Virus record (IMG/VR): IMGVR_UViG_3300045988_151684
Location: 39,994 to 103,993 of that record
DNA: 64,000 bases
From: a virus
Reading direction: 5' to 3' (one strand)
Shown here: positions 28,074 to 47,735 of the stretch, piece by piece
How the letters are laid out: every line of letters starts with the position of its first letter
Position numbering within the stretch: position 1 is the stretch's first letter
Translations under genes and position numbers: made by a program
Notes under the pieces: generated by a model
The model's database searches: none
What the model saw: only the letters and a program-made list of their open reading frames with translations
Told to the model about the DNA's origin: nothing

Positions 28074-28685
28074 TTAATCATCATAATAGATATTGGCATC
28101 GTACCCGAAACCGGCCAGATTATCCGTGAACTGATGCATCCGAATGATGTTGTTCGGGTACTCCTCTTTGAGATAATCCCGACAGGCCGTTTCGAACGTG
28201 TTGCCCTCGCCGTAGTTGGCTACCCAATACGGCACATAGTCCGGCAAATCCTCGATACGGATATAATGCGAACTTTCGGCACTCAGCCAACTCCAACTTG
28301 CATATACACCATTGTACTGGTGCCCGTAGTTTGTGAGCTGGTTGATAAAGGCGCGGCAGCACTCAGTCACATCACCGTTAAGCATCCGGTTTGACTCTGC
28401 ATCATACCAAATACCCAGCGGCGGTGTTTCGCCTCTCAGGTATTCTTTCAGCCATGCAGCAACCTGATCCGCCTCTGCCACAGCCTCATCATAAGTGCAG
28501 GCATGAGCGAAATAATAAACGCCATACTGCAGGCCATATTCCACAGCGTGATTGATGTGCTCGACAAACATATTGTCGAGGCTGGAGCGCTCGCCGATCT
28601 TTAAGATAACACCCTCAATGCCGGTATCAGCGAGTGCCTGCCAGTCAATTTCAGTCTGCCATGCGGATATATCAATTACTTTCAT
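28074..28685 (-). CDS. endolysin, GH25-family muramidase
   Basis: GH25 N-terminal signature MKVIDISAWQTEIDWQAL...GVILKIGE. Confidence 0.8.
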   Translation of the reverse strand: MKVIDISAWQTEIDWQALADTGIEGVILKIGERSSLDNMFVEHINHAVEYGLQYGVYYFAHACTYDEAVAEADQVAAWLKEYLRGETPPLGIWYDAESNRMLNGDVTECCRAFINQLTNYGHQYNGVYASWSWLSAESSHYIRIEDLPDYVPYWVANYGEGNTFETACRDYLKEEYPNNIIRMHQFTDNLAGFGYDANIYYDD

Positions 28686-28690
28686 TTTGC

Positions 28691-29134
28691 TTACTTCCTT
28701 TCTCGTTCTTCAGATAGCTGCTTTAACGTATTTTTTAATTTTGCTGGTATTGGCACTCCTGCCTTGCCAGCATTTTCTAATATAGATAGCCCTTCATTGC
28801 CTAGAAAAAACCATGTTACCGCTACACAAATAAGCTGCTGCCCCATAGCATTATCCATGAAGTGAGCTAATGACACTAACAGCAAAATCATTAGTTTTTT
28901 GCAAATGCCTTGAAACCCTCTATGACTGTCAAGAGCCATGTCAGGGTTTACATAAGCCGCCAGCACTCCGCTGATATAGTCAATGACCATTGCGAATATA
29001 AGTGCTTCAAGTACACTGTTCCATGCGCCAAACAGGTATGTTGTCACCATGCCAATTGCTCCTGTCGTCGTCCCCCATAGGGCTTCGACACGAACGGGGA
29101 CGAGTGACCTTATCGCTTCTATTATTACATTCAT
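28691..29134 (-). CDS. holin (TcdE/phage_holin_4_1-like)
   Basis: 147 aa with multiple TM helices, directly upstream of the endolysin. Confidence 0.6.
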   Translation of the reverse strand: MNVIIEAIRSLVPVRVEALWGTTTGAIGMVTTYLFGAWNSVLEALIFAMVIDYISGVLAAYVNPDMALDSHRGFQGICKKLMILLLVSLAHFMDNAMGQQLICVAVTWFFLGNEGLSILENAGKAGVPIPAKLKNTLKQLSEERERK

Positions 29135-29415: not shown

Positions 29416-31119
29416 TTACTGCACAAAATCTTTCAGCGCTTTCGCATCATGCAGCAGCTGTGCTTCCTTAGCCGTTGGTTTTTTCTTTGTATGCCACTCT
29501 TTTTGAGCACGCTCCTGAGCGCTCCTATTAGAATCGCTTTCATACCGCTTGAACTGCTTATCCGTTATGCCTAAATCCTGCATAGCCCGCTTATTCTCAG
29601 ATGTCTTATCCTTACGGTATGCATCCATAGCATCCTTCTTTTCATCACCATAACGGCTGCGCATATCATAAAGGTAGCTGTTAATGAAGGATGTATTAGA
29701 TTCATCAGTGCTGCGGAAACCCAGCCCATGAATGACTTTAGCAAAACCATCTTCATATACGCTATTAACGCGGTGATGCGTACCATAGCTTGCACCGTTA
29801 ACCCAGGCCTGAATCATATTGCCCAATGCTGGTGATATTGCCTTGATTGCTTCCGCTGGATTTCCATTATGCAGCTGGTCAATAGTATTAAATGCTGTGC
29901 CCAGAACCGGACCGCCTAAAGCATTGGCAATAGCTCCTGCTGCCGATGACGGCGCCGTACCATAATATTTCCCGCTGAACGCACCTGACATCCCGACACG
30001 ACCTGAAATATCAATGCCAGCTAATGCCGGTATTCCATAGATAACCGTTTCAACAAGTTTCTTGCTTGCCGGGTCGTTGCCTGCCCATTTCATCATAGCT
30101 GCCTTGCACTCATCAGCAAGATTTTCATCTTTACCGGTATAAATACCAAACAGGAATGAGAAGAATTCATTTAGCAAATCGCCAAATGGCAGCGCTCCGG
30201 CCGCACCGGCCAGCAGCATATAAGGAACAAGGAATCTTGCCCGCTGCGCATTGTTTTCAGCATGAACAACATTGTTCCACATAAATTCAAGCTGCATAAT
30301 CGGGTACTTTTGGAACTGGAACATTTGCTGGGTTAATACCGATCCCGCTCTCATTACGCCCGGAGTTGCTACATTTGAATAATCAAAGTTAGCATCAAAG
30401 TTTACTTCCTTGGCATATTGCATAGCTTTTTTAGAAATGGTCTTGCCTGGTTCAGGTTTCATTCCCTTTTCAGTTACACCCTGATAGTATGCTCCTAGGA
30501 TAGCAGCTTTACGCATTAATGAATCAGCCATAGTAAACGGCAGCATGGTTTTATTGGCAGCACGTTTTATATTGCCTAAAACATTACGCACTCTGCCTGA
30601 ATCACGGTTATGGGAATAGCCGCCACTGTTATCAGCTAATGTTATTTCATTCATAACACCGCTATTCTTCAGTATGCGCCGGTCTAGCTTATTTGGCTTG
30701 AGTGCCCGCTTAAGTCCCTCCATTGCCCATTTGTAACTATTCAGCTTTGTACCAATATTTACAAACTGCATGAAGTTAATTGCTGCTGATGCAAAGTTAC
30801 CTAAACCAAGTTTAACTACTGCTATGAAAGAACTGAAATTACTGGATAATGCTAGTGCTGGTCTGCCATTATAATAATCGCTCAGCCGTCGTCCTAGTGC
30901 TGTTTTCTCTAATGACTTATTCAAAAGTTTCTCAAGCCGGCTCGGAACACCGTTCATATCGTTGATATGGTTCTTGATATACCATGCTATATCTGTCTTA
31001 GGCTCGGCATTGAAATCACCAAACCAGCGCTCATAGGTAGATATTGCCTGCGGTTTCCAATGTTCCATTGCTACATAACGTGAGGATGCATTGAAGTAAT
31101 GCTCCAGCAGCCACGGCAC
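29416..31119 (-). CDS. virion / ejection-associated protein (hypothetical); 5' end overlaps the giant ORF by about 49 nt
   Basis: 567-aa ORF. An alternative start MEHWKPQ lies immediately after the giant ORF stop. Confidence 0.4.
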   Translation of the reverse strand: MPWLLEHYFNASSRYVAMEHWKPQAISTYERWFGDFNAEPKTDIAWYIKNHINDMNGVPSRLEKLLNKSLEKTALGRRLSDYYNGRPALALSSNFSSFIAVVKLGLGNFASAAINFMQFVNIGTKLNSYKWAMEGLKRALKPNKLDRRILKNSGVMNEITLADNSGGYSHNRDSGRVRNVLGNIKRAANKTMLPFTMADSLMRKAAILGAYYQGVTEKGMKPEPGKTISKKAMQYAKEVNFDANFDYSNVATPGVMRAGSVLTQQMFQFQKYPIMQLEFMWNNVVHAENNAQRARFLVPYMLLAGAAGALPFGDLLNEFFSFLFGIYTGKDENLADECKAAMMKWAGNDPASKKLVETVIYGIPALAGIDISGRVGMSGAFSGKYYGTAPSSAAGAIANALGGPVLGTAFNTIDQLHNGNPAEAIKAISPALGNMIQAWVNGASYGTHHRVNSVYEDGFAKVIHGLGFRSTDESNTSFINSYLYDMRSRYGDEKKDAMDAYRKDKTSENKRAMQDLGITDKQFKRYESDSNRSAQERAQKEWHTKKKPTAKEAQLLHDAKALKDFVQ

Positions 31120-34100
31120 ATCTTTTTCAAACCCCTCGGCGCCTTGCGTTTTTTCATATTACCAAAGAAACGATGCCGTCCCTTTATTTTTGCGCCAGCT
31201 GATTCACGCAGGAACTTTCTTGCTTCATTGAGTGACATATCCGTATTCTTATGTATCTGGCTAGTCATTCTAGCAAAATCACGGTCCCCAACTACGACGT
31301 TGTTGTATTCCTCATCATATTCAAAGCCCTGTGCTCTAATAACATATTCAGAATCTGGATTTTCCTTTGCATAACCATTAGCAAGTTTAGCAGCCTCTTT
31401 TAAACTTCTGCCACTGCCACGAGTTACAAGTATTTCTTCTCCATCTTCATTAGTATATTTTTGATAAACCATGAATTTATGAAAGAAATGCGGTACATAG
31501 CCAGTTAATTTAGTTAAAGGCTTGGGCCGTTCTGTATAATCAACCCGCCATAAAGTAGTACCTAAATCATCCGTCACGGGTTCAAAATCTATAACGCAAA
31601 CATCCTTATCTGCCTTTAATTTACTTAAGGCCTCAGGCGATACCATCTCGCCCGTATGTTCATAAATTTTAGCGCCGCGATATGTTACCAGTATTTTGCC
31701 ATTGCCTTTATTAATTATACTAAGAATATCGCTGTCCTTAAGGAAATGTGCCTTTTTGAAATCATCCAGCTGGCTTCTATGAAGAATCTTATTGCGCTCT
31801 ATCACCTGCATCCGAGCATCATTTATCAGCTTATAGGCACTGCCAAGACGCAGCCGAACCAGCTTATAGGCACGAATTGCATTATCGGAAAGTCCCATTT
31901 CCTTCAAATCCTTAACTTTGTATTCCTTGCCTTCCATATCACCTTGCAGCAGCGCCTGTGATACATCGTCCAAATCCTTCTTATCTTTGGTATACTGGTT
32001 AAACCGTTTCATAGCCTCGCCATAATGCGCCCTGAGTTTTTCCTGCTCATCGTATGCCTTGCGGGCTAAATTATAGAAATACTTGACAGCATTATTCTTC
32101 TTTGAAACCTGTCTTACCGTCTTAACCCACATATCGAGCATATTCAAGTTGTCAATATCACGCTCCTTTTTCTTGCGAATTTCAACGTTCTTTTCGGTGG
32201 CAATTTTACCCAGCTCGCTCATTGACCTTTTAATGCGGTTCAGCGAACCAGCCGGTTCCGTCTCCGTCTGCATTTCACTGATGGAGTATTTTTGCGTACT
32301 AGAAAAGCCGTCCTTGTCAGAACGGCTTACTGATAATTTGTTGTTGTCGTATTCATAATCGTGAATTGCCTTAACATCGTTTAGATATAATACTGATTGA
32401 ACCTCGTAGCTTACATTTTTCTCGGGTTGTTGATTACGTGCATTAAGCTCTCGTACTCCTCCTGTATAGCCTTTCTCAACCTCGACTTCACTTCTTCTAT
32501 CGGCATTGTCGGGTGTTCTTTTATCATATCTGGCAGGAGTTCCTCCATCTTTAATGGCTCTATTTTTGACGTTGTTTTGTCGGTTGTCTGATACATAACG
32601 CTCAAACTCCTCTCCTAATCGGTTAAAACGGCGTGAGTATTCATACGCTTCTTTTGGAAAACCATTCATATCGAAGTTGAATTTTGACCGCAATTCACGA
32701 ACTATCTTAGTTCCTAAAAACGCTTGGTCTAACTCATCGTCCGTCATGTCAGGTTTTAGCTTGCCTGCTAATTCCTGCTTCATCTGCTTAATGTCATTAT
32801 CGGTCACTTTTAGGGCATTGTCAAGCTCTCTTTCCCATACTTTTCCAGATTCTATATCCTTAAAAATACGGTTTACTTCCTCAGTCTTGGCAATGATGGA
32901 ACGCAGCTTATCAACCATTTCACGGAATTTTTTCCATAGCTTGCCAAACTTGAATGAATTACCGTTAGGGTCTTTAGTAACTCCCTTATTTCTAGCTAGG
33001 AACCAGTCACGGTATCTGTCAGCCGCATACTCAATAACGTCCTTGCCAGCTTTCCTAGCGTCCTCTTTATACGCCTTGATGATTGCAGATTTTTCTTTAT
33101 CTGTGAGCACCATATCCCATACCGCATGAAATACTTCATGGTATACGGAACCTTCATCGCCATTTAATGCTAACTGTATTACTGCCTTACTGCCAACCGT
33201 ATACTCTTTGCCGTTGACCTTTATCTTTACGCCAGCTTCTAACCCGTGAGCCTTCCTTGCTTTGTCAGCGTCTCCATTATCAACATTGAGTTCATCAGCA
33301 ATTTGTATTTCCACTTCTGCTTTATTGAACATAGTGAAATAAAGTGATGAGCCATCATCACGAATATTTTTGGCAGTCGGCAATGCTTCAGCTATTTCCG
33401 TGCGTAACCGCCCCATAGCCTGCGCTTTTGCCTGTTCGCTAATCTGCTCTTTTACATTATCTGCTGGGCTGATACTGTAATTGCTTTCGGCTAACAATGC
33501 GTTAGCTTCTTTGACAAATTCATTGCGGTCATTTTCATTTTCAAAGATAAATGAATTGTTAGCATACTTGCTATAGTGACCGTTGTGCTCTTTAGCCAGG
33601 TTACTGATTGAACGGTATTTATCGCTTAAATATTCGGTTGGTCTTGCCGTTGAATAAAGTTTGTCAACGTTTGGACGGGTATCTTCATGCGTGCCAAGCG
33701 TGAAATACTGTTCAGATTCAGTGTTTTCAGCTGGTTTAGATTCCGTTGTCGGTACTTTAGCATTAGGGTTATTGGCTTTTTCTGCCAAGTATTTATTGGC
33801 AGTACGCTCAAATTTATTGCGCAATGATTCAGTCGCAAAACCATAACCGCCAAACTTTACATTCCTTCTTCCTTGGTAGTCAAATGCTATTGCATATAAC
33901 CTATCGTCGTTCATCAGCTTTACATCATCGACTAAAGCCATATAGCTGTTATTAATGCTTTTTTTATTAACAGTATTGGTGAAATGATTTTTTATATCGG
34001 CGCCAATACGCTCAGGCATGGTCATATTTTTAATACGGCTGAAAAGGTCTTTGATATTCTCTATACCTCTAAGGTCTACTTCATTTCCACCTTGTGCCTG

Positions 34101-37100
34101 TTTCATATCCTCGTCAGTAAGGTATTTATCAATGACTAATATCTTTGTAGCTACGCTTGTTCCAGCACGCTTAAACGTGCATTGTGGAAGTCTTATGGTA
34201 TTAATGAGTAAGGCATGTTTTGCTTCATTGTTTCCGTACCATTCATCAAACCGCTTATTAAATGCAGGACCATCAGGGACAATTGCTATTACTCGCCCGC
34301 CATCATAAAGATGTTCAAAGGCTTTTGCCAAGTGTTCCATAGCGGTCTTGCCACCTTTACCGTAAGGAGGATTCATAGCAATACCATCAAACTTATTGGC
34401 TTTGGCGAACTGCTCAAAGGTCGTAGTTTCTACTCTTGAAGTAGTACCGCCTTTTAACCGCATTTTAGCAAGTGTAGCCAGCTGTTCGCTTGGCTCAATA
34501 ATAGTATTCCTTGTCGTAGCACTAAAGTAACGGGATATTGCGCCATGACCTGCGGACGGCTCCAATGCTTTGTTGCCATTCTTCAAGCCTAACCATTCTA
34601 CCATCTTAAAGCCTACTGGTTCAGGTGTCGGGTAGTAGTCTACACCTTCACTTGATTTATTACGGCTGTTCTTTTTCGCATTGGTGAAATAATCCGATAC
34701 GGCTTCATCAAATTGGCTAACGCCACTCATTGCTTTGCCATCACGGGCTTTACCGCCTGTACCTTCGGTCTTGCTGTTTGGCAGATAACGTTTCCATGTA
34801 TCACCGTCTATTGATTCCATAAAGCCGTTTACGATAGCGTCTCTAAGGTTGCGTGCTTCATAGCCCATAGAAAGATTTTCAGCGGTTGAAGAACGTCCCG
34901 CAATCGTATCAGCAAAAGCCTGTCTTTCAAAATTCATGCCAGTATTCAGATAGCGGATAATAGCATTAGTTACTACGCCAGTACGATAGATTCGCCCTTC
35001 ACATTGGATTAAGTCCGTTGGTCTTGTTGCCAGCCCCAAGTCTATTAATACCCGCTGGTGTTTTCCTGTCCTGTCGTGCAGGGATATACCTTCTTTAGCA
35101 GACGCCCGCTGACAAAGAAGAACTCTTAAATCATCCTCATCGTCATTAAATTTGTCAACACTATCCTGTCTTAATGATTTTTTCACATCACCATTAAATA
35201 TGCCGACTGTCTTTCCAAGCTCCGACTGAAAACGTTCTATAGGTGACATCAGGTCTTTCATATCCAGCTTTAGCAGTTCAGGATTTTCAGCACAAAAATC
35301 CTCATACTGCTTGTGAGCCTTAGCCTGATCAGACGGGTCAAGCTCTGCAAAATCATCACTAATAAGCATAAATGGATTTGCAGCTTCATTCTTTTTGAAA
35401 TCATGGAACACTACTACCTGCTTGCCAGCTTTTAAATATTCCTTGATTATTGGGATTGCCGCTTTAGCCTTGACTGCTTCCAGCAGATAACGCCGTCCAT
35501 TCTTCTTTAGTTTTTCATCAACCATCTTGGCAATCAGACTGTATTTGTCTCTATCGCCTTTTTCATCGTTGCCATGCAGAATGTCAAGTCCTCTATCAAT
35601 CTGCTTGCCTACGCCACCATCAACTAGGATATAGCCACGCTCATAATCGGGCTTAACTTCTAATTTACGGCTGGAAACAGCGCCAATGCTTTTCAGCCAT
35701 TCATTAAATTTTATTTCCATAATGTCTTGGTTAACTTCTGCGTCAGGCTTATTCAGCTTGTTATTGCGCATACGATAACCAAAATGGTCAATCATAAACT
35801 GTTCTTGACCATCGGTATCATTGTAGTAGCCATGTTTTTCTTTGGCAGGATAATCAAACAAATACCCCTCAGCATATTCTATATTTTTGATGTAGGCAAA
35901 TGGCGTAGCTGACAGGAACAGCACTTTATGGCGGTCATTAGCTCCCTTGGCGTCCTCTGCCTGCATAGCTTCATACTCTGCCTTTAGCTTATGGCGTATT
36001 CTTTCATTTTTAACATGCAGGTCTGCCAGCTGCTGTCTATCACTAGCCGTAAAATCAGATGCTCCGGCTCTGCTGTTCAATGACCTTTCCTGCATTACAT
36101 TATCATAATTTTTAGCTTCGTAATAATCGTTAAAGCCTCTATTATGATAGGTCATGGCACGAACTTTGTTAAGTGCATTAGTATTATTTGCCTGTTCTCC
36201 CTGCATTAGTTTATGAGATTCATCAGTTACGATTAAATCCCAGTCACGTTCTAAAAGGGCGTTGTTTTCACCTACATTTTGATATGAAGTGATAACAATG
36301 CCCTCGCCTTTATCCTTGGTGCTTTTCAGTTTGCTAATATCCAAGCCAAAGAAACCTTTACCCGCATTAATCCAGTCATTCTGTGTTTTATCCTGTGGCG
36401 CAATGATAAGAATATTCTTTTTGCCACGCTGTACAAAACGCTTGATAACGCCTAAGCCTGTAAAGGTTTTGCCTGTTCCTGTACCGTTGGTAAACATCAT
36501 ACCTTTATACGGTTTACCGTTTTTATCGGTGCTGAACAAACGGTTATCAGCTTTTACAACATCATCAACCTGTCCTTTCATCAGGAACGGCATACTAGCT
36601 TCTATTTGCTTTTTACTGCCAGTTTTAAAATTCTTCTTATCGACTTTAGCACCATTTATTGCGCCACGTTTACTGCTTTCATTGACTGGTCGGTTTTCAG
36701 CAGATTTAATACTTTCTGCGCTTCGTCCATCGTCAACCGGCGGTCTGTCGAAACTGTCTCTAATGCTTCTTGATAGGTGTTCAGCTCCGGTGCTATCATT
36801 TCCAGCTGACTGTTTGGTTTCTTCGCTTTGTACTCGGCTATTGCCAGTCTTTCCGCTAGTATCGGTGCTACGTCCGTGAACGCCGCCGCTACGTTGTGAC
36901 CGTACTTCTTTTCCAGACGATTGTACACTCTGTCCTCGCCCTGTTCGGGATTCTCCATCTTCATGTACTGACCCCACTGCGTCTTGATTGTCCCCTGCGC
37001 TATTTCGTTCAGCAGGTTTGTTGGTGCTGTCATAAAGCTCACTGTCCGTTACCTCCTTAGGATTGTTAATTACATTATCTGCGCCAATAAAGCCAAGTTT

Positions 37101-40100
37101 GAGTAATGGTTCAAAATCCTTAGCATTATCTTCACCATATTTTTTAGCAAACTCATTGCGAATATCTTCAAAACCTGCTTTGGGATTCTTTTCCATGACA
37201 CTGCCAACATAGTTAAATGCAGGTATCATTTGAGATTCATCAACCTTGCCGTCAGCAGATTCGAGCATTGACCATACAGGGTGCAGCCATCCACGTATAT
37301 CATCACCAAGAGTATCAATCATGGTTTTAGCAAATTCGGTAAAGCCTTTTGCGCCACGTGCTACATACAGTCTGCCTAACTTAAATGCTGGTGCAAGAAT
37401 GTCGGGGTCAAATACCGGCAGGGAATTTAATCTGTTGCGGGATTTTTCAAGTGCCTGTTTTAACTCTGCTACCAATTTTGTTTCGGCTTCTTCTGAAATA
37501 TCAACGCCAGCAAATTTTTTAGGGTCAATATCCTTCGGCTTATTACCATCAGATTCATCTTTTGATTCTGCTTTAGCTGGTTTTTCCTCAGCCTTTTTCT
37601 TTACAGGTCGAATACCTAAAGCCTTTTCAAGCTCTTTTTCGGCTTCCTCCTGTGTTGAGAAAATCCTGTGTTTCTTTTCTTCTTTTGGCTTTTCATCTTT
37701 TACCACGGGTTCGGATTGAACGGTTTCAGTCCCCTGTGTATGCTCGCTAGATACTTCTCCGCCGTTTCCTTCGGCAACTGTTTCATTACCATCAGTTCCA
37801 GCTCGTTCGGTTCCCTTTTTCTTAGCTTTACTATTGCTAGGCTTTGCAGACGTATTACTATCTTGTTCCTCCTCATGTATTCTTTCCAACAAGTGCTTCC
37901 TTATAAGCACACTATCTGCTAACACACCAGCTCTACTGTACGGATATAAGTCTGGGTTGAATACATTATCGTCTGTATCTTCTATTTCCTTCTCTAACTT
38001 GGCTAATCTCTCTATTGCTTCTTCATAAGTGATACTTTTTGCCCGATAAGCCTTGATAATCTTGCTTCCTTTTTGGTTAAAACCTTCTCTTATTTCCTCT
38101 TTCTCTTTGTATGAATAGGTTCTGTGCTCATTTTCATTTGTAGCTTTTTCGTTGCCTTCCTCAGCTGGTTCAGCTCCTGCCTTTTTTTCCTGTTCTTCGG
38201 CAAGCTCCTTAGCATAATCAGGTTCGCTCGTATCGGTATCAATTTCTTTTGATTCACCATAGAAATCTTTGACAAAACGGGCTTTATCATCAGAAGTTTC
38301 AAAGTCAAGATTATATACAGGTTTACCATTTTCCAAGTGTCCACGATAGCTTTCAATGTTATAGCCACGGTCGATATAATCCTTTATGTCAGATTCATAG
38401 ATACCGCTAACTCCTTTTAGAACAGTATCTTCTTTAGCTGATTTTTCTGCTTTAACTTCCTGTTTATCCTGCTCAGTAACGTTTTCAGCTGCTTCATTCT
38501 TGGCAATAGCTGGTGTTGCTTCCTCAGCTGGTTTAATTTCCTGCTCTGCTTCATCGTTGGTTTCAGCATTAGCAAGTTTCTTCTCAGCATTGACTATAGC
38601 CTTTGGCACGCCATGTTCTAGGTCATTGCGCAAATTATCATTAACAGAAATATTCTTTGCTTTCAGCTCATTTAAAAGCTCCTTGCCTAGTTCAATGCGA
38701 TCAGCCCGTGACATTTTCTTGACTTCGCTTAACCGTTTTTTATAGTCAAACCTGCTTGGAACATTGCCATACTGACTGTTTCTTATTTGCTCTGCTTCCT
38801 TATGGAACCCCATTGCGTCCGCTTCATTTGCCATTGCACCTATATCACTCTTGGCTTTTGCTTGACGGAATACAGGCGAATCGTTAAGCCGTGCCATTGG
38901 GTCATTGGTATTTACGGTTGGTGCTTTACGTTTTGGCGTGTCAGGAATAACAATATCAGGAGTTTCAGCAGGTGCGCCATTCGGAACAATAATCCCTGCA
39001 TTAGGCGTAGCAGGATTAATTGCAAGCCCAGCTTTCTGCATACGTGCGTCTATTGCTTGACGGTTGGCATTAGCCTGTTGCTGGTTATTGTTTAAATCCT
39101 GCTGTATGGTGCTGTCTAAAACATTACCGTCTATTGGCTGTCCATTCATAGCTGACTGCATAATAGCACTAGCCGTTGTGGGCAGATTTTGCTGTGTGGC
39201 CTGTGCAGCAGCATATTGCGGGTTATTATTTGCTATGCTGGCTAACTCTTCAAGATTTGCTATTGAAATATGCTGCTGATTATTTTTTATATTGCCAGCC
39301 AGTCCCTGACCATCCGGCAGTGCGGGGAAAGCATTTGGCACATCAAGCTGGATGCCATTCATGATAGCATTTTGAATGTTGCCAGCTGAGGCATTAACTC
39401 CCTGCGTCAGCAGATTGACCATAGTATTGTTCCAGCCATTACTGCGGGCAACTAAAGCAGCCTCAGCAATTTTTCCCTGTGATGCCAGTTTAGTGATATC
39501 ATCTACTGTCTGAGCAAATCTGTTGCCATAATTAGTTGAAACTCTTGTCTGTGCTGGTGCCTGCGGATTAATATTGTCAATTTTCGGTGTGGCCGGCGCT
39601 CTCCTTGGTGATGGGGCTTTAGCTGCCATCACGGTCTTCATCATAGCATTAGCAGTTTCCTGCGGATGCATCTTAAATATTGCGCCAATATCACCACCAT
39701 CAATTGCATTTTGCATAGCAGCTGCATGGGCTGCGTCCTCATTTACATCATCACTTACTGGCATATTCATCAACTGAGTAGCCATTTCCATTACTGACTG
39801 CTGCTGCTCCGGCGTCACCTCATTATTGCTAATAAGTGCCTGCGCTGCTTCCATATTCGCCTTTTCCTGCTCTGGTGTCAGGTCATATTGAGATAAATTG
39901 AATCCGGGAACAGTTATATTATAACTGCCACCACTGCCATTTAAAGCTTCACCATGGTCACTGAAATGTAAATGACCGCCGGTAGCATTAGCCGAAGGAT
40001 TACTATATTCGTCTAAACCATATAATCCATATTCCTTAGCCTTATCTATTAACCAGTTACGCGCATCCGCATTACCCTCAAGAAAATCATCGGCCGTATC

Positions 40101-41870
40101 AAAAGCCTGTGCCGAATCATGCCAGCTTTCACCACCGCCATTGCGAGCCATCGACGTTATATAAAAGTGCCGTCCATACTGGTTATAATAGTCACGGTCT
40201 AACAGTCTTAATTTCTGCTCAGTCAAATCAGTTAGATTAGGATTAGAAACTTCACCGCTTATAGTATAGTCTGCTGTCTGTGGAATATCTAAAGCTGGTG
40301 ACTGCGCTTTTTCATCAGCAAAATGCCCCATTGCACTATTTACATAGCCAGCTATGGATGGACCATTGCCCTGTGGCGCATCCCAAGGTCTGCCATTTTG
40401 GTCAGTAGCTTCTCCCTCAACCCAGCGCTGAGCATTGTTTGGACCGGAATACCATGCAACTAATGCCCCTTCTGGACCATACTCATCAAAATACTGTCCC
40501 ATTTTAAAACGTCCGACTTGACGGTACGCATCATCATCATCCATGCTTGCACCACCAAGACCAGCTTCTTTTGACCATGCATCCCAATTTTCCGGCTGAA
40601 TCTGATAAACACCACGCGCACCCGTAGATGATACCGCATCAGGATCACCGCCGCTTTCCTGCATTTCAATAGCGTTGAAAAATGCTTCTTTGTCGCTGCC
40701 GCCGTTATTAGCATTGCCACGTTGTACCGTAACTGTGCTTTCCGGAACATCAGCAATCTCTGTTTTATTGCCAGCAGTTTCTTCCATGCCATTAAATGGA
40801 TTATTAGGATTACTTTTAGCAGCTTCATTATTCATTCTATTAATTCTAGCTTTATAATCCCTATAAGCAGTATGGCCTGCGCCAAACAGACCTAATGGCA
40901 GGCTGCCCATAAAGGCAGCTCGTCCTGCCTGCTGTTCGTCCTCTGTTGGATTAAAGAACGTACCATACGGCTTGCCACTCCATTTATTTTGTGCCTGCTG
41001 TTGTGTCATTTCCTGAGCATACTCCGAGGCTGCCGAGCCCGGAATATTAACGCCATAGCCGGCAATCTTGCCTGCTCTGCCACCCCGTTTGAATATCGGC
41101 TTAAAGCCTTTACCTTCAAGGATAGGTCCCATAATACCCTGAGTAAGCATATCCATTGGCAGTTCTTCTTGTATCATGCTATTCATACGACGAGCAATTT
41201 CATCATCAGAAAGTCCCTCGTCTTTTAAATCAGCATACATATCGCCGGCATTAGTTGCTGCTTCCAGTGGTCCCGTACCTAAGGCCCATTTTGCTGCTGA
41301 AGCTCCTGCCTGCTGTCCTGCCTTTGACATAATAGCCTTGCCTATCTGCTTAGCTCCAGCACGGGCAGCCATTGAACCAATACCACGTGCAGCAAGTGCG
41401 CCAGCACCGCCAAATGGTGCTGCGGCACTAGCAGCCGCAAACGGAATAGCCGAACCTGCCATCTGACTAAAGTCAGCCAGCAGACCTCGTTTGTCTGTCA
41501 AATAATCAGCACTGGTTAATCTGTCAATTATACTCATATCCTGATATTTATCAAGCGTGCCAGATTCAGCAAAATTCTTAGCTGCTTTATCATTAAGATA
41601 TTCACCATTATTTATAAATGAATCGCCCCATTTACCGAGCGTACCCTCATCTGAATTGCGGATTGAATCAACATAAGAACTTTCCCGCCCTGCCTCGTCA
41701 AAACGTTTCAGTTGTGCTCCTATATAATCAAGCCCGCCACCAATTACGCTTTCGGCTCCGCCTGCTAAGTTATCCATTATGGTTGAAAACAATCCCTTTT
41801 CTTTTGGTGCAGCAGCTGATACGCCAGCTACTACAGGATTGCTTATTGCATGTTCTTTTAAAAATGACAT
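31071..41870 (-). CDS. giant polyvalent virion protein (3,599 aa) with lytic transglycosylase, M15 peptidase, SNF2-type helicase, N6-adenine DNA methyltransferase (DarB-like) and HExxH zincin-like modules
   Basis: SLT motif EMQESGG...GARGVYQIQ at about aa 400-430. M15 motifs SWHDSAQAFD and GGHLHFSD at about aa 580-640. Helicase Walker A GTGKT at about aa 1797, DESH at about aa 1883 and QCEGRIYRTG at about aa 2290. MTase motifs EPSAGHG and NPPY at about aa 2437-2503. HEVFH at about aa 2911. Confidence 0.8.
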   Translation of the reverse strand: MSFLKEHAISNPVVAGVSAAAPKEKGLFSTIMDNLAGGAESVIGGGLDYIGAQLKRFDEAGRESSYVDSIRNSDEGTLGKWGDSFINNGEYLNDKAAKNFAESGTLDKYQDMSIIDRLTSADYLTDKRGLLADFSQMAGSAIPFAAASAAAPFGGAGALAARGIGSMAARAGAKQIGKAIMSKAGQQAGASAAKWALGTGPLEAATNAGDMYADLKDEGLSDDEIARRMNSMIQEELPMDMLTQGIMGPILEGKGFKPIFKRGGRAGKIAGYGVNIPGSAASEYAQEMTQQQAQNKWSGKPYGTFFNPTEDEQQAGRAAFMGSLPLGLFGAGHTAYRDYKARINRMNNEAAKSNPNNPFNGMEETAGNKTEIADVPESTVTVQRGNANNGGSDKEAFFNAIEMQESGGDPDAVSSTGARGVYQIQPENWDAWSKEAGLGGASMDDDDAYRQVGRFKMGQYFDEYGPEGALVAWYSGPNNAQRWVEGEATDQNGRPWDAPQGNGPSIAGYVNSAMGHFADEKAQSPALDIPQTADYTISGEVSNPNLTDLTEQKLRLLDRDYYNQYGRHFYITSMARNGGGESWHDSAQAFDTADDFLEGNADARNWLIDKAKEYGLYGLDEYSNPSANATGGHLHFSDHGEALNGSGGSYNITVPGFNLSQYDLTPEQEKANMEAAQALISNNEVTPEQQQSVMEMATQLMNMPVSDDVNEDAAHAAAMQNAIDGGDIGAIFKMHPQETANAMMKTVMAAKAPSPRRAPATPKIDNINPQAPAQTRVSTNYGNRFAQTVDDITKLASQGKIAEAALVARSNGWNNTMVNLLTQGVNASAGNIQNAIMNGIQLDVPNAFPALPDGQGLAGNIKNNQQHISIANLEELASIANNNPQYAAAQATQQNLPTTASAIMQSAMNGQPIDGNVLDSTIQQDLNNNQQQANANRQAIDARMQKAGLAINPATPNAGIIVPNGAPAETPDIVIPDTPKRKAPTVNTNDPMARLNDSPVFRQAKAKSDIGAMANEADAMGFHKEAEQIRNSQYGNVPSRFDYKKRLSEVKKMSRADRIELGKELLNELKAKNISVNDNLRNDLEHGVPKAIVNAEKKLANAETNDEAEQEIKPAEEATPAIAKNEAAENVTEQDKQEVKAEKSAKEDTVLKGVSGIYESDIKDYIDRGYNIESYRGHLENGKPVYNLDFETSDDKARFVKDFYGESKEIDTDTSEPDYAKELAEEQEKKAGAEPAEEGNEKATNENEHRTYSYKEKEEIREGFNQKGSKIIKAYRAKSITYEEAIERLAKLEKEIEDTDDNVFNPDLYPYSRAGVLADSVLIRKHLLERIHEEEQDSNTSAKPSNSKAKKKGTERAGTDGNETVAEGNGGEVSSEHTQGTETVQSEPVVKDEKPKEEKKHRIFSTQEEAEKELEKALGIRPVKKKAEEKPAKAESKDESDGNKPKDIDPKKFAGVDISEEAETKLVAELKQALEKSRNRLNSLPVFDPDILAPAFKLGRLYVARGAKGFTEFAKTMIDTLGDDIRGWLHPVWSMLESADGKVDESQMIPAFNYVGSVMEKNPKAGFEDIRNEFAKKYGEDNAKDFEPLLKLGFIGADNVINNPKEVTDSELYDSTNKPAERNSAGDNQDAVGSVHEDGESRTGRGQSVQSSGKEVRSQRSGGVHGRSTDTSGKTGNSRVQSEETKQSAGNDSTGAEHLSRSIRDSFDRPPVDDGRSAESIKSAENRPVNESSKRGAINGAKVDKKNFKTGSKKQIEASMPFLMKGQVDDVVKADNRLFSTDKNGKPYKGMMFTNGTGTGKTFTGLGVIKRFVQRGKKNILIIAPQDKTQNDWINAGKGFFGLDISKLKSTKDKGEGIVITSYQNVGENNALLERDWDLIVTDESHKLMQGEQANNTNALNKVRAMTYHNRGFNDYYEAKNYDNVMQERSLNSRAGASDFTASDRQQLADLHVKNERIRHKLKAEYEAMQAEDAKGANDRHKVLFLSATPFAYIKNIEYAEGYLFDYPAKEKHGYYNDTDGQEQFMIDHFGYRMRNNKLNKPDAEVNQDIMEIKFNEWLKSIGAVSSRKLEVKPDYERGYILVDGGVGKQIDRGLDILHGNDEKGDRDKYSLIAKMVDEKLKKNGRRYLLEAVKAKAAIPIIKEYLKAGKQVVVFHDFKKNEAANPFMLISDDFAELDPSDQAKAHKQYEDFCAENPELLKLDMKDLMSPIERFQSELGKTVGIFNGDVKKSLRQDSVDKFNDDEDDLRVLLCQRASAKEGISLHDRTGKHQRVLIDLGLATRPTDLIQCEGRIYRTGVVTNAIIRYLNTGMNFERQAFADTIAGRSSTAENLSMGYEARNLRDAIVNGFMESIDGDTWKRYLPNSKTEGTGGKARDGKAMSGVSQFDEAVSDYFTNAKKNSRNKSSEGVDYYPTPEPVGFKMVEWLGLKNGNKALEPSAGHGAISRYFSATTRNTIIEPSEQLATLAKMRLKGGTTSRVETTTFEQFAKANKFDGIAMNPPYGKGGKTAMEHLAKAFEHLYDGGRVIAIVPDGPAFNKRFDEWYGNNEAKHALLINTIRLPQCTFKRAGTSVATKILVIDKYLTDEDMKQAQGGNEVDLRGIENIKDLFSRIKNMTMPERIGADIKNHFTNTVNKKSINNSYMALVDDVKLMNDDRLYAIAFDYQGRRNVKFGGYGFATESLRNKFERTANKYLAEKANNPNAKVPTTESKPAENTESEQYFTLGTHEDTRPNVDKLYSTARPTEYLSDKYRSISNLAKEHNGHYSKYANNSFIFENENDRNEFVKEANALLAESNYSISPADNVKEQISEQAKAQAMGRLRTEIAEALPTAKNIRDDGSSLYFTMFNKAEVEIQIADELNVDNGDADKARKAHGLEAGVKIKVNGKEYTVGSKAVIQLALNGDEGSVYHEVFHAVWDMVLTDKEKSAIIKAYKEDARKAGKDVIEYAADRYRDWFLARNKGVTKDPNGNSFKFGKLWKKFREMVDKLRSIIAKTEEVNRIFKDIESGKVWERELDNALKVTDNDIKQMKQELAGKLKPDMTDDELDQAFLGTKIVRELRSKFNFDMNGFPKEAYEYSRRFNRLGEEFERYVSDNRQNNVKNRAIKDGGTPARYDKRTPDNADRRSEVEVEKGYTGGVRELNARNQQPEKNVSYEVQSVLYLNDVKAIHDYEYDNNKLSVSRSDKDGFSSTQKYSISEMQTETEPAGSLNRIKRSMSELGKIATEKNVEIRKKKERDIDNLNMLDMWVKTVRQVSKKNNAVKYFYNLARKAYDEQEKLRAHYGEAMKRFNQYTKDKKDLDDVSQALLQGDMEGKEYKVKDLKEMGLSDNAIRAYKLVRLRLGSAYKLINDARMQVIERNKILHRSQLDDFKKAHFLKDSDILSIINKGNGKILVTYRGAKIYEHTGEMVSPEALSKLKADKDVCVIDFEPVTDDLGTTLWRVDYTERPKPLTKLTGYVPHFFHKFMVYQKYTNEDGEEILVTRGSGRSLKEAAKLANGYAKENPDSEYVIRAQGFEYDEEYNNVVVGDRDFARMTSQIHKNTDMSLNEARKFLRESAGAKIKGRHRFFGNMKKRKAPRGLKKMCRGCWSITSMHPHVM

Positions 41871-41891: not shown

Positions 41892-43682
41892 TTAATCACC
41901 ATATCGGTTTCTCATGTCTTGAATAATAGCAGGATCTATACGTGCCAAAAGCTCGTCATTGCCTGTTTTTATATCATCCCAATAAATTTTGGTATTTGGA
42001 TTTGCTGGATCCCGATTATATTCTCTTAAAAAATTCCCTAGATACTGCAATTCATTATCCTCCCAAGCATTATCATCTTCATCATGCCCAGGAATACCAA
42101 TAGCTTTTTCTTTAAACCCATTAAAATCTATATCGCCACTAAGATATTGCTGTATATACTGGTCATATTTGGCTTTATGACCTTCTTCCTTAGCTGTTGC
42201 TGCTGATGATTTAGCACCTCTTTGGTACTTTCCACTTGCTAAATCTTCGGCGTGCCATTTATCTCTTGCTTGTATATCCTCAGCCTTACGTTTATTTGCT
42301 GCCTGCTCTTTCATAACCGCCGTCTGATAACCAAAATTCTGACCGCGGGCCGTAAGATTCCCCTTCATTTTATCCGTTGGACTTATTGCTTTGTTGAATG
42401 TCTGCGTACTGCCAGCACCATAACCGCTCGGGTCATAATAAGAAACATACTTCTTATCACCTGTATCAGTTTCATGCATAGTGTAATTACGCTTTGTTTT
42501 ATCAAAAGCATTGATAATGTCTTTCGGATCAGCGCCGGATGCTACCAGCATAGCCAGCATACTTCCAGCTTGAGGATTGCTTGCCAGGCTTTCAATGAAT
42601 TTACCCTGTAGCATTTTCTTAGTCTTTTCTGCTTCCTGCTTATCCATCTTGGCCAACGCCGCCTCAACCTGATTTTGTGGCAACCCCTGGTTAATCAAAG
42701 CACGGCGCAAATTATCCCGATAATCCGGTGAAGCTTTTTCGCTAGCAATATCTTTCATAGCCAGTTGCTTGGCTGTTGCGTCTAACACAGTGTTGTAATC
42801 TGCACCCTTGCCATAGACATCGTATATATCCTGCATGGTAATAGTATCTGGATTACTATAGGCTTGTTTTGCAGCATCCTGAACATCCTTAACACTGAAC
42901 GTATAAGGATTAGTATTGGCAGCATTATTTCCCGCCGGAAGCTGATTTTGTGCTGCTCCGTTTTGTCTTATTGGCTGTGCTCCAGCTAATTCATTAGCTA
43001 CTTCCTGTAATGTCTGTGGCGATGCATTGCCATTTCTGTACAGCTCACTTATTTCTGCTTTGGTAGGCGCATAGTTAAACGGCTTTAGTCCTAATGCTGC
43101 CTGAGCTATTTCTTCTTTGGTGGGTGGCTTCTTATATGATATATCCAGCTCATTTTTTGGCATTTGATAATTGCCAAATCTGTAATTTGGTGACATTTCC
43201 GCCTCAGCAGCAGCCTTGGCAGCAGCTAAACTGTTGACATTCCCCCCTACTTTTGACATATCTATATGCTTTCTGTCACCAATCTTACGGAACTCATCGG
43301 CCATAGTATGTGCCGTATTTTGTATATCACGGAATTTTTTTACATCATCGGAATCTTCACCGTAACCATTATTAAGTAAATATTGTGCATCATTCTGTGC
43401 CTGCCACCAGCGACGTTTAGCATTTAATAAACCTTGCTGTGGTGTAAGACCTACATAATCACCCGCATTAGACTGATTCTTTAATGCCTCTGCTGCTTCT
43501 GCTCTATGCTGATCAGCATACTTATCAAGCATATCCTGCTGATACCTCTTGATAGCGTCACCAGCTTTATCTATGCCACGCTGATTATAATTTTGTGCCC
43601 AGGCATTACCTAGTGCTGCCCCTAAAGCACTGCCAAGCTCCGGTGAAAAAACATCATCTCTTATATCACTCCACCAGCCCAT
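41892..43682 (-). CDS. internal virion / ejection protein (hypothetical)
   Basis: 596-aa ORF overlapping the giant ORF start region. Confidence 0.35.
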   Translation of the reverse strand: MGWWSDIRDDVFSPELGSALGAALGNAWAQNYNQRGIDKAGDAIKRYQQDMLDKYADQHRAEAAEALKNQSNAGDYVGLTPQQGLLNAKRRWWQAQNDAQYLLNNGYGEDSDDVKKFRDIQNTAHTMADEFRKIGDRKHIDMSKVGGNVNSLAAAKAAAEAEMSPNYRFGNYQMPKNELDISYKKPPTKEEIAQAALGLKPFNYAPTKAEISELYRNGNASPQTLQEVANELAGAQPIRQNGAAQNQLPAGNNAANTNPYTFSVKDVQDAAKQAYSNPDTITMQDIYDVYGKGADYNTVLDATAKQLAMKDIASEKASPDYRDNLRRALINQGLPQNQVEAALAKMDKQEAEKTKKMLQGKFIESLASNPQAGSMLAMLVASGADPKDIINAFDKTKRNYTMHETDTGDKKYVSYYDPSGYGAGSTQTFNKAISPTDKMKGNLTARGQNFGYQTAVMKEQAANKRKAEDIQARDKWHAEDLASGKYQRGAKSSAATAKEEGHKAKYDQYIQQYLSGDIDFNGFKEKAIGIPGHDEDDNAWEDNELQYLGNFLREYNRDPANPNTKIYWDDIKTGNDELLARIDPAIIQDMRNRYGD

Positions 43683-45190
43683 TAATCATCACCCCATATC
43701 TCGCTGCTGCCACCATTGGCAATGAAGCCATCCGCAATGTAGTTGTTTGCGCCGTCAACCTGCAAATCATAGACCCTGCGTTCACCGCTATAGACAACAC
43801 TTTGAACTTTGCCAACATTTTTAAGCTCTGTACCAATCGTAAGGTAACTTAGCATTACATACTCGCCATCAGGCTTCATAAAGCTCTGTGTAAGTGTGGT
43901 ACTCGTATGACCGTCTTTTGCAATGACACAATAAACGTCATTGTATCTAGGTTCCATAGTCTTTACTACCTTAGCAGTAGTGCCATCAGCCGTCATGACT
44001 TCATCACCTGCATGAACATGCTTAATATCCCGCTTACTGCCATCAGCCATGTCAATCATAGTTCCCTCCGGGAAACAAGCCCAGCCCATAGCAGCACCAC
44101 CTACAGCTGACCCTAGCAAGTTGCCAAAGAAACTGCCGCCTGATGTATGCTGATTTTGTGTTGATGTACTAGTTCCTTTTCCGGCAGCTGCGGCCAACGC
44201 TCCAGTATTGGCACCATTGAGACCAAGCGAAGTCTGCCACAAATTCATTGCTGGCGTCTGCGCTGCTTCCTGCGCTGTTGCCGCTGCCGTAATAGGTGAT
44301 GTAGCTGAATCAATAAGATTGCCATACAAACCTTGGTTAGCACTGTTATTGCCCTGCGTATTGCTTAGCTGCTGCTGCGTTATGGCTCCTGCCTGGCCAA
44401 GAGCACCACTATTAACACCGTACTGCCGGCTTATAATATCACCTAAGCTGTTCGTTGCATTGTTAGTATTTTGATTTTGCTGCTGGGCAAGATTGGCTGC
44501 CTGATTAATATTGTTTTGATACTGTGATGCCACACTGTCGCTGGCATTTTTCTCAATGTCATTAAGTGCACTCGATGTTACGGACGAATTTAGTACGCCT
44601 CGATTGCCTAAATTGTTAATCGCTTTGCCAACCGTATTATTAACCGCTGAGTTGATACTTTTTTCCATATTCTGCTGATATGCAGAAGGCAAATTGCCAT
44701 TTTCTAAGCTGCTAAGCGTACTATTTGCTTTATTTGCCGAATCAACATAGCTTCCCGCAAGATTTCCATACTGATTTGATGTACTATTAGCCAGTTTATA
44801 ATTCTGATTTACTAAATCACCAAGCGTGCCGTTAGCGTTGTTAGTTGCTGAATTATTACTGCCAATAAGCCCTGCCAGCCCATTTGTCGCATTGCCTATC
44901 TGATTTTGTGCATTTTTGTTCATGGCGTTATAGTCGACCTGAACCGTACCTAGAGAATCTCTAAGCAAATTCATAGCATAATCATTAAGCGTTATGGCAT
45001 TTGGCATAACAGCATCAATATATTTGCCCTGCTGCTTCATCAGATACTTTTCTTCCTCTGATGGAGTATAGGTACTGGTATTAGTAACGGTTGTCGAATG
45101 TCCTTTGAAGTAGCAACGATGGAAATATTTTCTGTATACTTCGCTGTGTAAATTATCTTGCGGTCTATCAAACCACATCTGCTGAAACAT
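43682..45190 (-). CDS. N/Q-rich protein with a C-terminal Hint (hedgehog/intein-like) autoprocessing domain
   Basis: Hint block A CFPEGTMIDMADGSKRDIKHVHAGDEVMTADG and block B-like TLTQSFMKPDGEYVML, after about 300 aa of N/Q/S/G-rich low complexity. Confidence 0.5.
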   Translation of the reverse strand: MFQQMWFDRPQDNLHSEVYRKYFHRCYFKGHSTTVTNTSTYTPSEEEKYLMKQQGKYIDAVMPNAITLNDYAMNLLRDSLGTVQVDYNAMNKNAQNQIGNATNGLAGLIGSNNSATNNANGTLGDLVNQNYKLANSTSNQYGNLAGSYVDSANKANSTLSSLENGNLPSAYQQNMEKSINSAVNNTVGKAINNLGNRGVLNSSVTSSALNDIEKNASDSVASQYQNNINQAANLAQQQNQNTNNATNSLGDIISRQYGVNSGALGQAGAITQQQLSNTQGNNSANQGLYGNLIDSATSPITAAATAQEAAQTPAMNLWQTSLGLNGANTGALAAAAGKGTSTSTQNQHTSGGSFFGNLLGSAVGGAAMGWACFPEGTMIDMADGSKRDIKHVHAGDEVMTADGTTAKVVKTMEPRYNDVYCVIAKDGHTSTTLTQSFMKPDGEYVMLSYLTIGTELKNVGKVQSVVYSGERRVYDLQVDGANNYIADGFIANGGSSEIWGDD

Positions 45191-45202
45191 TTCTGCACCC
45201 CC

Positions 45203-45622
45203 TTATATGTCCCATGTAATATAAAAGGCCTGCCTGCCATCATCCTTATATTTGAATGCTGGCGAAGCATAGCCCATCTTCTTTGTAGTTTTATTTATTG
45301 CCTGATATCTAGTCGCACCATCTTTCAGTAACTCTTTTTTTACTACTTTATAGCCAAACAATCTGAAATATGCTGGTGGATTACAGCGGATATTTATAGT
45401 ACCACCGTGATGTATACCTGCTTTTTCCGCCGCCTTATCTACGGCATTTTTCCAATAGCGTGCATCACCGCCAAGCTGTCCAATAAATGCCATGCGTTTT
45501 GTCATAAGAACCTCACAGAATCCTTTATCTTCTTTAAAGAAAAGCGCATACCTATTGTCACGCTGAAACTTATCATGCAGATTCTTTCTGTTGTAAAAAT
45601 CTATCCATTCATCCAGTGTCAT
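45203..45622 (-). CDS. hypothetical protein
   Basis: 139-aa ORF in an operon. Confidence 0.3.
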   Translation of the reverse strand: MTLDEWIDFYNRKNLHDKFQRDNRYALFFKEDKGFCEVLMTKRMAFIGQLGGDARYWKNAVDKAAEKAGIHHGGTINIRCNPPAYFRLFGYKVVKKELLKDGATRYQAINKTTKKMGYASPAFKYKDDGRQAFYITWDI

Positions 45623-46977: not shown

Positions 46978-46992
46978 AAAATCACCACCTTT

Positions 46993-47229
46993 TTATGATA
47001 AAGTACCAGCTACCACATTTAAGGTAGCGTGGCTGCCAAGCGCCCTTGCGTACACGATACCGCTGCTTGAGTACGTCTTGGCACACCCACCGTGCAAGAT
47101 AAAGCCAGTATCTGCCTTGGCTGTATCACTTACTTCTATAGACTGCCCAGGCATGACATAAAAGACACCACTACTCTCTGCTATCTTTGTAAAATCACTC
47201 GATAACTTATACTGTGACATAAAATACAC
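46993..47229 (-). CDS. hypothetical protein
   Basis: 78-aa ORF. Confidence 0.3.
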   Translation of the reverse strand: MYFMSQYKLSSDFTKIAESSGVFYVMPGQSIEVSDTAKADTGFILHGGCAKTYSSSGIVYARALGSHATLNVVAGTLS

Positions 47230-47383
47230 CTCTCTTTTACACTAAAAAAGCACCTGCCCAAGCGCAAGTGCATATTTTTTCTTTGTATCTACTTTATAAA
47301 GCCACAAAATAGCTTACATTGATATTTTACTACTATATATAGCCTAAAAACTTTTAAAGCTCAAAAAAAAATAAAAAAAGACT

Positions 47384-47412
47384 TGACATTATATACTGAC
47401 TACAGTATACTT
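47384..47412 (+). promoter_or_regulatory. Consensus sigma70 promoter TTGACA-17-TATACT with an upstream A-tract
   Basis: Read directly. Drives the plus-strand moron cassette. Confidence 0.6.
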
Positions 47413-47726: not shown

Positions 47727-47735
47727 GGTGATAAT

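Follow-up and report, generated by a model that had tools for sequence, protein, structure and literature searches.

The internal core protein gp16 of the podovirus T7 (~1,300 amino acids, aa) carries an N-terminal transglycosylase, is not known to have a helicase or a methyltransferase (MTase) domain, and is ejected to help span the cell envelope. That podophages span the envelope with ejected internal proteins is stated as a general principle in PMC11784390. Phages and conjugative elements also encode polyvalent proteins, in which many unrelated enzymatic domains are joined in one polypeptide (Iyer et al. 2017, PMC5512222). Here we analyse a giant gene in a 64,000-nucleotide (nt) stretch of the virus record IMGVR_UViG_3300045988_151684 (positions 39,994 to 103,993 of that record; hereafter the window, whose numbering we use). 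The gene probably encodes a giant polyvalent virion protein of a temperate podovirus-like prophage, in which wall-breaching enzymes are combined with a DarB-like helicase and methylase, and the sequenced copy is interrupted by the loss of a single base.

Among the components of the polyvalent class, Iyer et al. list a SWI2/SNF2 ATPase with an adenine MTase, HExxH metallopeptidases, and lysozyme-type and DD-peptidase wall enzymes; one of their examples, a giant protein, comes from a prophage in the Negativicute Acetonema longum. They suggest that the SNF2-type ATPase is the motor that carries the MTase along injected DNA, that polyvalent proteins are processed by HExxH peptidases, and that lysozyme and DD-peptidase domains help to breach the wall. 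In the myovirus P1, DarB (2,255 aa) combines a virion-carried N6-adenine MTase with an SF2 helicase; it is described as virion-associated and as guarding P1 DNA against type I restriction (PMC5512222, PMC9144972), and it depends on DarA, Hdf, DdrA and Ulx for its packaging (PMC9144972 citing Piya 2017). Giant proteins have also been described in podophages. These include gp81 of the Serratia phage Parlo (3,764 aa, annotated as 'DarB-like antirestriction'), which was reported with an N-terminal transglycosylase (PMC6606913), the 'PLxRFG protein' of the Klebsiella phage vB_KpnP_ZX1 (3,867 aa, hereafter ZX1) and its counterparts in other Lastavirus members, and, in Lessievirus, gp75 of Bcep22 (4,602 aa) and gp69 of JC1 (4,515 aa). 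For the last of these, a homologue of the Bcep22 type, mass spectrometry of CsCl-purified virions yielded 51 unique peptides (PMC9144972).

The giant gene and its closest relatives

A preliminary description of this DNA had reported a 3,599-aa open reading frame (ORF) at 31071..41870 and treated it as a complete gene. The frame itself is genuine: it runs from an ATG on the minus strand through 3,599 codons without interruption at 42% G+C, too long to be open by chance. Its extent was misjudged, the gene running on into a second ORF at 29416..31119. The exact 3,599-aa product is recorded on two large bacterial contigs (0.2-1 Mb), and since one of these is a 322.5-kb ENA metagenome contig (ERZ27229810 k119_174146), the window is part of a prophage-bearing bacterial contig. 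With the missing base restored, the product is laid out as an N-terminal region, an SLT domain, an M15 peptidase, linkers with an exchangeable cassette, a pre-helicase module, an SF2 translocase, an MTase, an HExxH domain and a C-terminal module (table 1). The catalytic motifs quoted in the preliminary description all lie where it placed them, EMQESGG at aa 402, GARGVYQIQ at 417, SWHDSAQAFD at 582 and GGHLHFSD at 631 in the wall enzymes, followed by GTGKT at 1798, DESH at 1883, QCEGRIYRTG at 2289, EPSAGHG at 2437, NPPY at 2500 and HEVFH at 2911. Its view that the remainder is linker was wrong, as residues 1-380, 1481-1780, 2641-2810 and ~3194 to the end are modules conserved among 155 giant relatives, a set of proteins that all carry the C-terminal module and on which the sharing counts below are based.

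Table 1. Position and predicted content of the giant gene, its modules and the flanking gene blocks; the last column gives the number of the 155 giant proteins that share a module.
Feature	Window position	Strand	Details	Shared by (of 155)
Reconstructed giant gene	29416..41870	minus	4,151 aa with missing A restored; sequenced form consists of ORFs of 3,599 + 567 aa	
ORF1	31071..41870	minus	3,599 aa, ATG start; final 17 codons are out-of-frame read-through to TAG	
ORF2	29416..31119	minus	567 aa, mechanical GTG start; distal C-terminal module, -1 frame relative to ORF1	
N-terminal conserved region	40731..41870	minus	aa 1-380; Gly/Ala-rich; one hydrophobic stretch, aa 142-160	67
SLT lytic transglycosylase	40410..40694	minus	aa 393-487; EMQESGG catalytic motif	39
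LAS/M15 zinc peptidase	39891..40250	minus	aa ~541-660; predicted zinc ligands H585, D592, H633/H635	24
Low-complexity linkers	37431..39773	minus	aa ~700-1480; Q/N-rich, then K/E-rich; few homologues	
Pre-helicase module	36531..37430	minus	aa 1481-1780; conserved; covered by PHROG 10691	57
SF2 (SNF2-related) helicase/translocase	34977..36509	minus	aa 1788-2298; GTGKT, DESH, QCEGRIYRTG	39
N6-adenine DNA methyltransferase	34101..34643	minus	aa ~2410-2590; motif I EPSAGHG, motif IV NPPY	60
Conserved HExxH domain	32841..33440	minus	aa 2811-3010; HEVFH 2911-2915, downstream Glu 2947	67
C-terminal module	29416..32291	minus	fused aa ~3194-4151 (~930 aa); beta-rich subdomain, RHRFFG motif, all-helical region	
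Hydrophobic segments of C-terminal module	30772-30858, 30175-30240, 30001-30057		aa 3672-3700, 3878-3899, 3939-3957	
Frameshift site	31144..31145	minus	one A lost from AAA run	
Lysis cassette	28074..29134	minus	holin 28691-29134 and GH25 endolysin 28074-28685 (Pfam Phage_holin_4_1, Glyco_hydro_25); immediately downstream	
Upstream virion module	41892..62768	minus	terS, terL, 733-aa portal, major head protein, fibre-like and virion structural proteins (PHROG)	

Profile searches, which the preliminary description had suggested as a check, support its SLT, M15, helicase and MTase assignments. The SLT domain matches Pfam PF01464 above the curated cut-off (E=2.6e-8; 33.9 bits against 21.3), is 34% identical to an SLT-annotated protein and retains the catalytic Glu-Ser motif (aa 402-408). 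The peptidase region matches PHROG 30973 (E=2e-19). The window segment alone gave no direct Pfam match and only sub-threshold matches to LdcB in the PDB, which rose to E=0.02 when six close viral-contig homologues were added. A 20-sequence profile headed by the window segment and otherwise drawn from its giant relatives matched the Sonic hedgehog N-domain (9e-8), the Streptomyces albus DD-carboxypeptidase (8e-4) and LdcB (5e-3) among solved structures, and 8 of its 20 members match Pfam Peptidase_M15_3 (best 3e-12). In this alignment H585 and D592 are invariant and followed by HLH at 633-635, giving the pattern H-x6-D ... H(-x-H). These profile matches confirm the predicted M15/LAS assignment at the superfamily level; the predicted peptidase, earlier labelled 'M15/VanY-type', is closer to M15_3 than to VanY. 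A tblastn search of phage records with this segment found nothing.

The helicase matches Pfam ResIII (E=5.8e-12) and Helicase_C, both above their cut-offs, while the SNF2-rel_dom model falls 2 bits short (22.9 against 24.9); it is 36-38% identical to proteins of Parlo, ZX1 and Skulduggery. The MTase matches PHROG 6263 'DNA methyltransferase' (E=2.4e-21) and, below the cut-off, Pfam MTS (8.9e-4). It is homologous to the MTase of P1 DarB, to which it aligns through both motifs (E=1e-6 pairwise, 1.5e-45 iterated). No match was returned by a PDB sequence search with the helicase-MTase segment. The SWI2/SNF2 ATPase and adenine MTase pair listed by Iyer et al. is recognisable here, the ATPase (aa 1788-2298) being followed by the MTase (aa 2410-2590).

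The HExxH domain was originally presented as a zincin module. It is certainly a conserved domain: among the 67 giant relatives that contain it, 65 keep the motif, its H, E and H are invariant in alignment, with at least 90% conservation of a Glu 32 residues further on. The predicted secondary structure (a helix, beta strands, the HExxH helix and the Glu helix) agrees with the zincin core as given in PMC5512222, and the leading, though weak, PDB profile matches are zincins. With the segment alone, a PDB search gave a single non-significant match (E=0.61), and hhalign of the domain profile against the P1 DdrB metallopeptidase was negative. We regard the domain as probably zincin-like.

The gene lies, as first described, between virion genes and the lysis genes. 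Upstream is a co-directional terminase-portal-capsid-fibre block and downstream the holin and GH25 endolysin, beyond which there is an integrase gene. The gene content suggests a temperate podovirus-like prophage. Two other origins have to be weighed against this position. A tape measure protein of a long-tailed phage would also be expected between tail-associated genes and a lysis cassette, and such proteins often carry SLT and peptidase domains, here found near one end. Among the structural genes scanned, however, no tape measure, tail tube or sheath PHROG was matched, the closest annotated relatives are from podophages, and helicase and MTase domains are not features of tape measures. By the rule of thumb of ~0.15 nm per residue, 4,151 aa would correspond to a tail of ~600 nm. 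We consider this origin extremely improbable. Delivery by type IV secretion, as the polyvalent product of a conjugative or plasmid element and not of a phage, is suggested by the sharing of the polyvalent theme with conjugative elements (PMC5512222), by ParA, ParB and Rep genes at 18.5-22.3 kb of the window and by a degraded copy on a Rep3/ParA/ParB plasmid-like contig. Yet terminase, portal and capsid genes on one side and holin and endolysin genes on the other form a single co-directional block around the gene, neither a relaxase nor a type IV secretion gene occurs among the neighbours examined, and near-identical copies reside on viral contigs of 37-47 kb, which makes this alternative very unlikely. 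On these grounds both were rejected. An N4-type virion RNA polymerase was also rejected, as no RNA polymerase family of Pfam, PHROG or NCBIfam was matched.

Comparison with the giant podophage proteins places the gene more precisely. Parlo gp81, the last virion gene before the lysis genes, and the ZX1 protein occupy the same genome place as the window gene. Identity to both (36-38% over ~1,160 aa; 37.6% for Parlo gp81) spans the pre-helicase module, helicase and MTase, at similar positions within the proteins, and the C-terminal module is homologous as well. In contrast, neither the first 1,460 residues nor residues 2,622-3,780 show any detectable similarity; the M15 profile finds no match in either protein, and the HExxH profile, which does not match ZX1 at all, picks up only stretches below threshold in Parlo. 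Parlo and ZX1 infect Enterobacterales, whereas the host of the window element is apparently a Negativicute, and only the window copy is frameshifted. The proteins of Bcep22 and JC1 likewise lie between virion genes and the lysis module. Iterated profiles show that Bcep22 gp75 shares the SLT (5.8e-19), the pre-helicase module (5.7e-25), also common to Parlo gp81 and ZX1, and the MTase (2e-54). There, however, the MTase (aa 1661-1889) comes straight after the pre-helicase module, the window helicase profile found no match, and the C-terminal module was not detected with window-derived profiles. No similarity to T7 gp16 emerged from sequence and fold searches.

The window gene resembles the giant podophage class, known from genomes of ~60 kb, in its size (above 3,500 aa; 4,151 when repaired), its place as the last virion-module gene before the lysis genes and its predicted transglycosylase, helicase and MTase. 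As in polyvalent proteins generally, at least two unrelated activities are predicted in a phage-encoded protein adjoining late and virion genes, although no Pfam 'PolyVal' or LPD model matched it. On its predicted domains the protein belongs, within the polyvalent class, among the giant podophage proteins that carry the annotation 'DarB-like' or 'PLxRFG'. The combination of domains had been called unusual, which it is not, because SLT, helicase and MTase have already been published together in giant podophage proteins (PMC6606913, PMC9144972), and a DD-peptidase and a zincin are also listed components of the class.

With P1 DarB the window protein shares the pairing of N6-adenine MTase and SF2 helicase, and the MTases have the matching motifs (L)EPSAGxG and N(P/V)P(Y/F)G. 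It is nearly twice as long, however, with five extra modules, and profiles detect no SLT, M15, HExxH or C-terminal module in DarB. As far as the alignments indicate, it would work partly like DarB without being a DarB orthologue, only the MTase being demonstrably homologous.

We therefore keep the polyvalent virion protein of the preliminary description, on the strength of its domains, its late-gene position and its closest relatives, and correct the protein itself, which was truncated and lacked the ~930-aa C-terminal module. Such a protein would be made late and packaged in the capsid, and upon infection would be ejected with or ahead of the DNA. The SLT and M15 domains would locally cleave the glycan strands and peptide stems of the wall, and the C-terminal module would serve packaging, envelope passage or both. 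The helicase-methylase pair would then track the entering DNA, methylate adenines and protect it in cis from restriction, as is thought for P1 DarB, and cleavage by the HExxH domain may divide the polyprotein into its working parts.

Several observations weigh against this proposal. The likeness to P1 DarB amounts to the MTase (24% identity) and to motif-sized, non-significant stretches of the helicase, and the order is reversed, DarB having its MTase (aa 88-281) before its helicase (~855-1517) and the window protein its helicase first. The HExxH domain matches no Pfam family, MPTase-PolyVal included, leaving the zincin fold unconfirmed. The role given to the C-terminal module is a guess, because it has no recognisable fold or solved relative. 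Finally, the in-frame C-terminal 570 residues are lost as sequenced, and this copy may be defective and perhaps non-functional.

The frameshift junction

The 49-nt overlap of the two ORFs (31071-31119) had been tentatively attributed to translational coupling or to a frameshift or fusion. In the DNA alignment, the window codons CGC AAG GCG CC face CGC AAA GGC GCC in the relatives; in five near-identical viral contigs, CGCAAAGGC stands in place of the window's CGCAAGGC. These contigs (IMG/VR 3300045988) are 97-99% identical to the window and in frame, and three of them could be read across the whole gene, each as one open frame of 4,282-4,285 codons that covers repaired residues 1-4151. More distant sequences agree. 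The repaired junction sequence has 23 homologues, of which the 22 that reach the junction all cross it as one protein, with the family consensus RHRFFGNMMKRKGAEGF, and in the isolate genome of Selenomonas sp. AE3005 one open frame runs through 4,730 codons, its C-terminal 930 aa being 47.6% identical to those of the window. Judged by these alignments, the overlap is a 1-nt deletion that splits the conserved ~930-aa C-terminal module. Coupling is rejected, as is a programmed shift, because the close relatives are simply in frame.

The programmed alternative deserves some detail. A -1 ribosomal slip, for example on the A6 run at 31149-31154, would yield the 3,599-aa and full-length forms in a fixed ratio; ORF2 is indeed in the -1 frame, and the run lies 3 nt upstream of the lesion, inside the stretch open in both frames. 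The same A6 run is nevertheless present in the five 97-99% identical contigs, all plainly in frame, as are all 22 of the more distant homologues that reach the junction. Moreover, the consensus 'RK' is still encoded in frame 0 past the A run, which makes the lost A, not the run, the site of the shift. In the ORF1 frame the run reads G AAA AAA, presumably no canonical X XXY YYZ site, a further point against slippage. We give this explanation hardly any credence.

As it stands, the sequenced copy would give a 3,599-aa product without the hydrophobic part of the module, and possibly a separate 567-aa fragment. The deletion is probably a recent inactivating mutation and less likely an assembly error: the identical truncated product is found on two large contigs, which makes a real mutation somewhat the likelier of the two. 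The further possibility that the gene is a dead remnant, in which a genuine frameshift in a decaying prophage leaves nothing functional to be made in this host, has in our view slightly better than an even chance. The deletion falls inside the most conserved module while five near-identical copies are intact, the occurrence of the 3,599-aa product on two 0.2-1 Mb bacterial contigs suggests an allele and not a one-off error, and the gene does decay elsewhere, a heavily deleted copy being present on a plasmid-like contig. On the other hand, if that base is set aside, no stop interrupts the 4,150 codons, which match the intact copies at 97-99% identity. With only one lesion in such a length, any decay must be very recent. 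The N-terminal 3,582 in-frame residues, with all the enzyme domains, could still be made, and an error in the metagenome consensus is an alternative that keeps some weight.

Neighbouring genes and related copies

Relatives of the giant gene point to the host. Neither Megablast searches of phages and plasmids with the gene nor a single-protein search of genome contigs found a match; an alignment-based scan of the latter recovered three loci only, with relatives in genomes of Selenomonas and Mitsuokella. The host probably belongs to the Selenomonadaceae (Negativicutes), and so to the diderm Firmicutes.

Two genes upstream of the giant gene, the virion module encodes a 502-aa N/Q-rich protein (43682-45190, minus strand) with a C-terminal Hint/intein-like domain (CFPEGTMID...; Pfam Hom_end_hint 2e-9; TIGR01443, intein C-terminal region). 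By these matches it may be a structural protein with a self-cleaving C-terminus. Within the same block, on the opposite strand, are genes for a RelE-family toxin and an HTH antitoxin (49285-49969, plus strand; Pfam).

Between two phage-like blocks, and adjoining a tyrosine integrase gene, lie genes for a ParB-like protein (424 aa), a ParA-like protein (274 aa) and a rolling-circle Rep-like protein (366 aa), at 18566-22277 on the minus and 24452-25558 on the plus strand. They may be a small integrated plasmid-like element or serve prophage maintenance. The first 14,000 nt of the window differ in composition (G+C 0.29-0.36 against 0.41-0.47 elsewhere) and contain co-directional ORFs of 958, 582, 418 and 326 aa, sizes typical of a second phage-like structural module; this is presumably the 'element A' of the preliminary description.

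A heavily deleted copy of the giant gene occurs at 7929-12247 of contig L007 (ENA ERZ27287082 k141_19925, 64.3 kb) and also on L008 and L009. Its fragments correspond to aa 1039-1140, 1354-1474, 2055-2242 and 2537-3305 and are 82-96% identical to the window protein. The copy adjoins Rep3, ParA, ParB and toxin-antitoxin genes, IS elements and a PBECR4 gene; the contigs are plasmid-like, and one has the label Hadza. A candidate free-standing module on a plasmid (P0024) was rejected, as it is a 5'-truncated fragment of this deleted copy.

The C-terminal module and the assembly of the family

Run against 1.84 billion proteins, profile A1, built on the C-terminal module, recovers 1,089 cluster representatives, of which 283 reach E<=1e-30. 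Most host proteins are 2,000-5,900 aa long (up to 5,855 aa), shorter entries being mostly fragments or shorter variants, and in the listed hits above 2,000 aa the match lies at or near the last residue. To the proteins of Parlo and ZX1 the module is related at BLAST E-values of 1e-7 and 2e-12 and at 3-4e-75 with an iterated profile (3e-75 for ZX1); A1 itself matches ZX1 at 2e-12 with filters off. Within the alignment of the window protein and its close relatives, R-H-R-F-[FL]-G is invariant at fused aa 3565-3570. The available part of PMC5512222 contains no description of this module, which defines the subfamily.

The distal part encoded by ORF2 matches NCBIfam NF032893, 'PLxRFG domain-containing protein' (tail-700), at E=8e-20 over positions 300-671 of 681, its 70.8 bits being below the curated cut-off of 100 bits; tblastn of ORF2 against phage records found no match. 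Although ORF2 alone matches, the repaired C-terminus (fused aa 3001-4151, 1,151 aa) gave no NCBIfam match, which is probably a filter effect. HMMER filters also dropped the true ZX1 and Parlo matches until --max was set, and composition-bias filters may hide the PLxRFG/tail-700 family in routine annotation.

Hydropathy identifies strongly hydrophobic stretches in the whole protein only at aa 142-160 and in three segments of the C-terminal module, all three downstream of the frameshift. In an AF2 model of the module (mean pLDDT 55) a beta-rich subdomain is predicted with confidence and the helices after it poorly; Foldseek against the PDB returned nothing below E=0.4, and the profile found no solved relative among PDB sequences. 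At the other end of the protein, aa 1-380 have no Pfam match.

The enzymes carried on this module vary. As the counts in table 1 indicate, none of those of the window protein is shared by all 155 giants. Other members carry Zeta_toxin/AAA_33 or ART-PolyVal, and a Selenomonas giant with the same module has Phage_lysozyme2 and ART-PolyVal. Variation is also seen among the nearest copies. Where the window has a ~90-aa helical segment (37791-38180, aa ~1250-1343), contigs 97-99% identical to it have an unrelated segment of ~220 aa (L026 8240-8959), containing ...GLIHAKKHEQQ... and without a Pfam match, an exchange that looks like a cassette swap within the gene.

In a broader but doubtful interpretation, the C-terminal module, perhaps with the N-terminal 380 aa, might be a general packaging-and-delivery chassis of podophages on which enzyme cassettes are freely swapped, much as in polymorphic toxin systems. 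It is put forward because more than 280 (up to ~1,000) clusters ending in the module vary in their cargo (SLT or Phage_lysozyme2, M15, ART, zeta-toxin kinase, helicase-MTase) and because the aa ~1250-1343 cassette is replaced in otherwise 97-99% identical copies. If it were true, the three hydrophobic helices would form or anchor an envelope-spanning conduit.

For annotation, the gene is one of ~4,150 codons with one base missing, and neither the 3,599-aa nor the 567-aa ORF should be taken for a natural protein. As an example of its class the window copy adds little, giant DarB-like polyvalent virion proteins being already documented in podophages and Negativicute prophages. The whole-cassette difference among near-identical relatives, together with the decayed plasmid-like copy, should help in studying how such genes are assembled and lost. 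The C-terminal module, large, widespread and the shared element of the family, offers a target for investigating how proteins of ~450 kDa are packaged and ejected.

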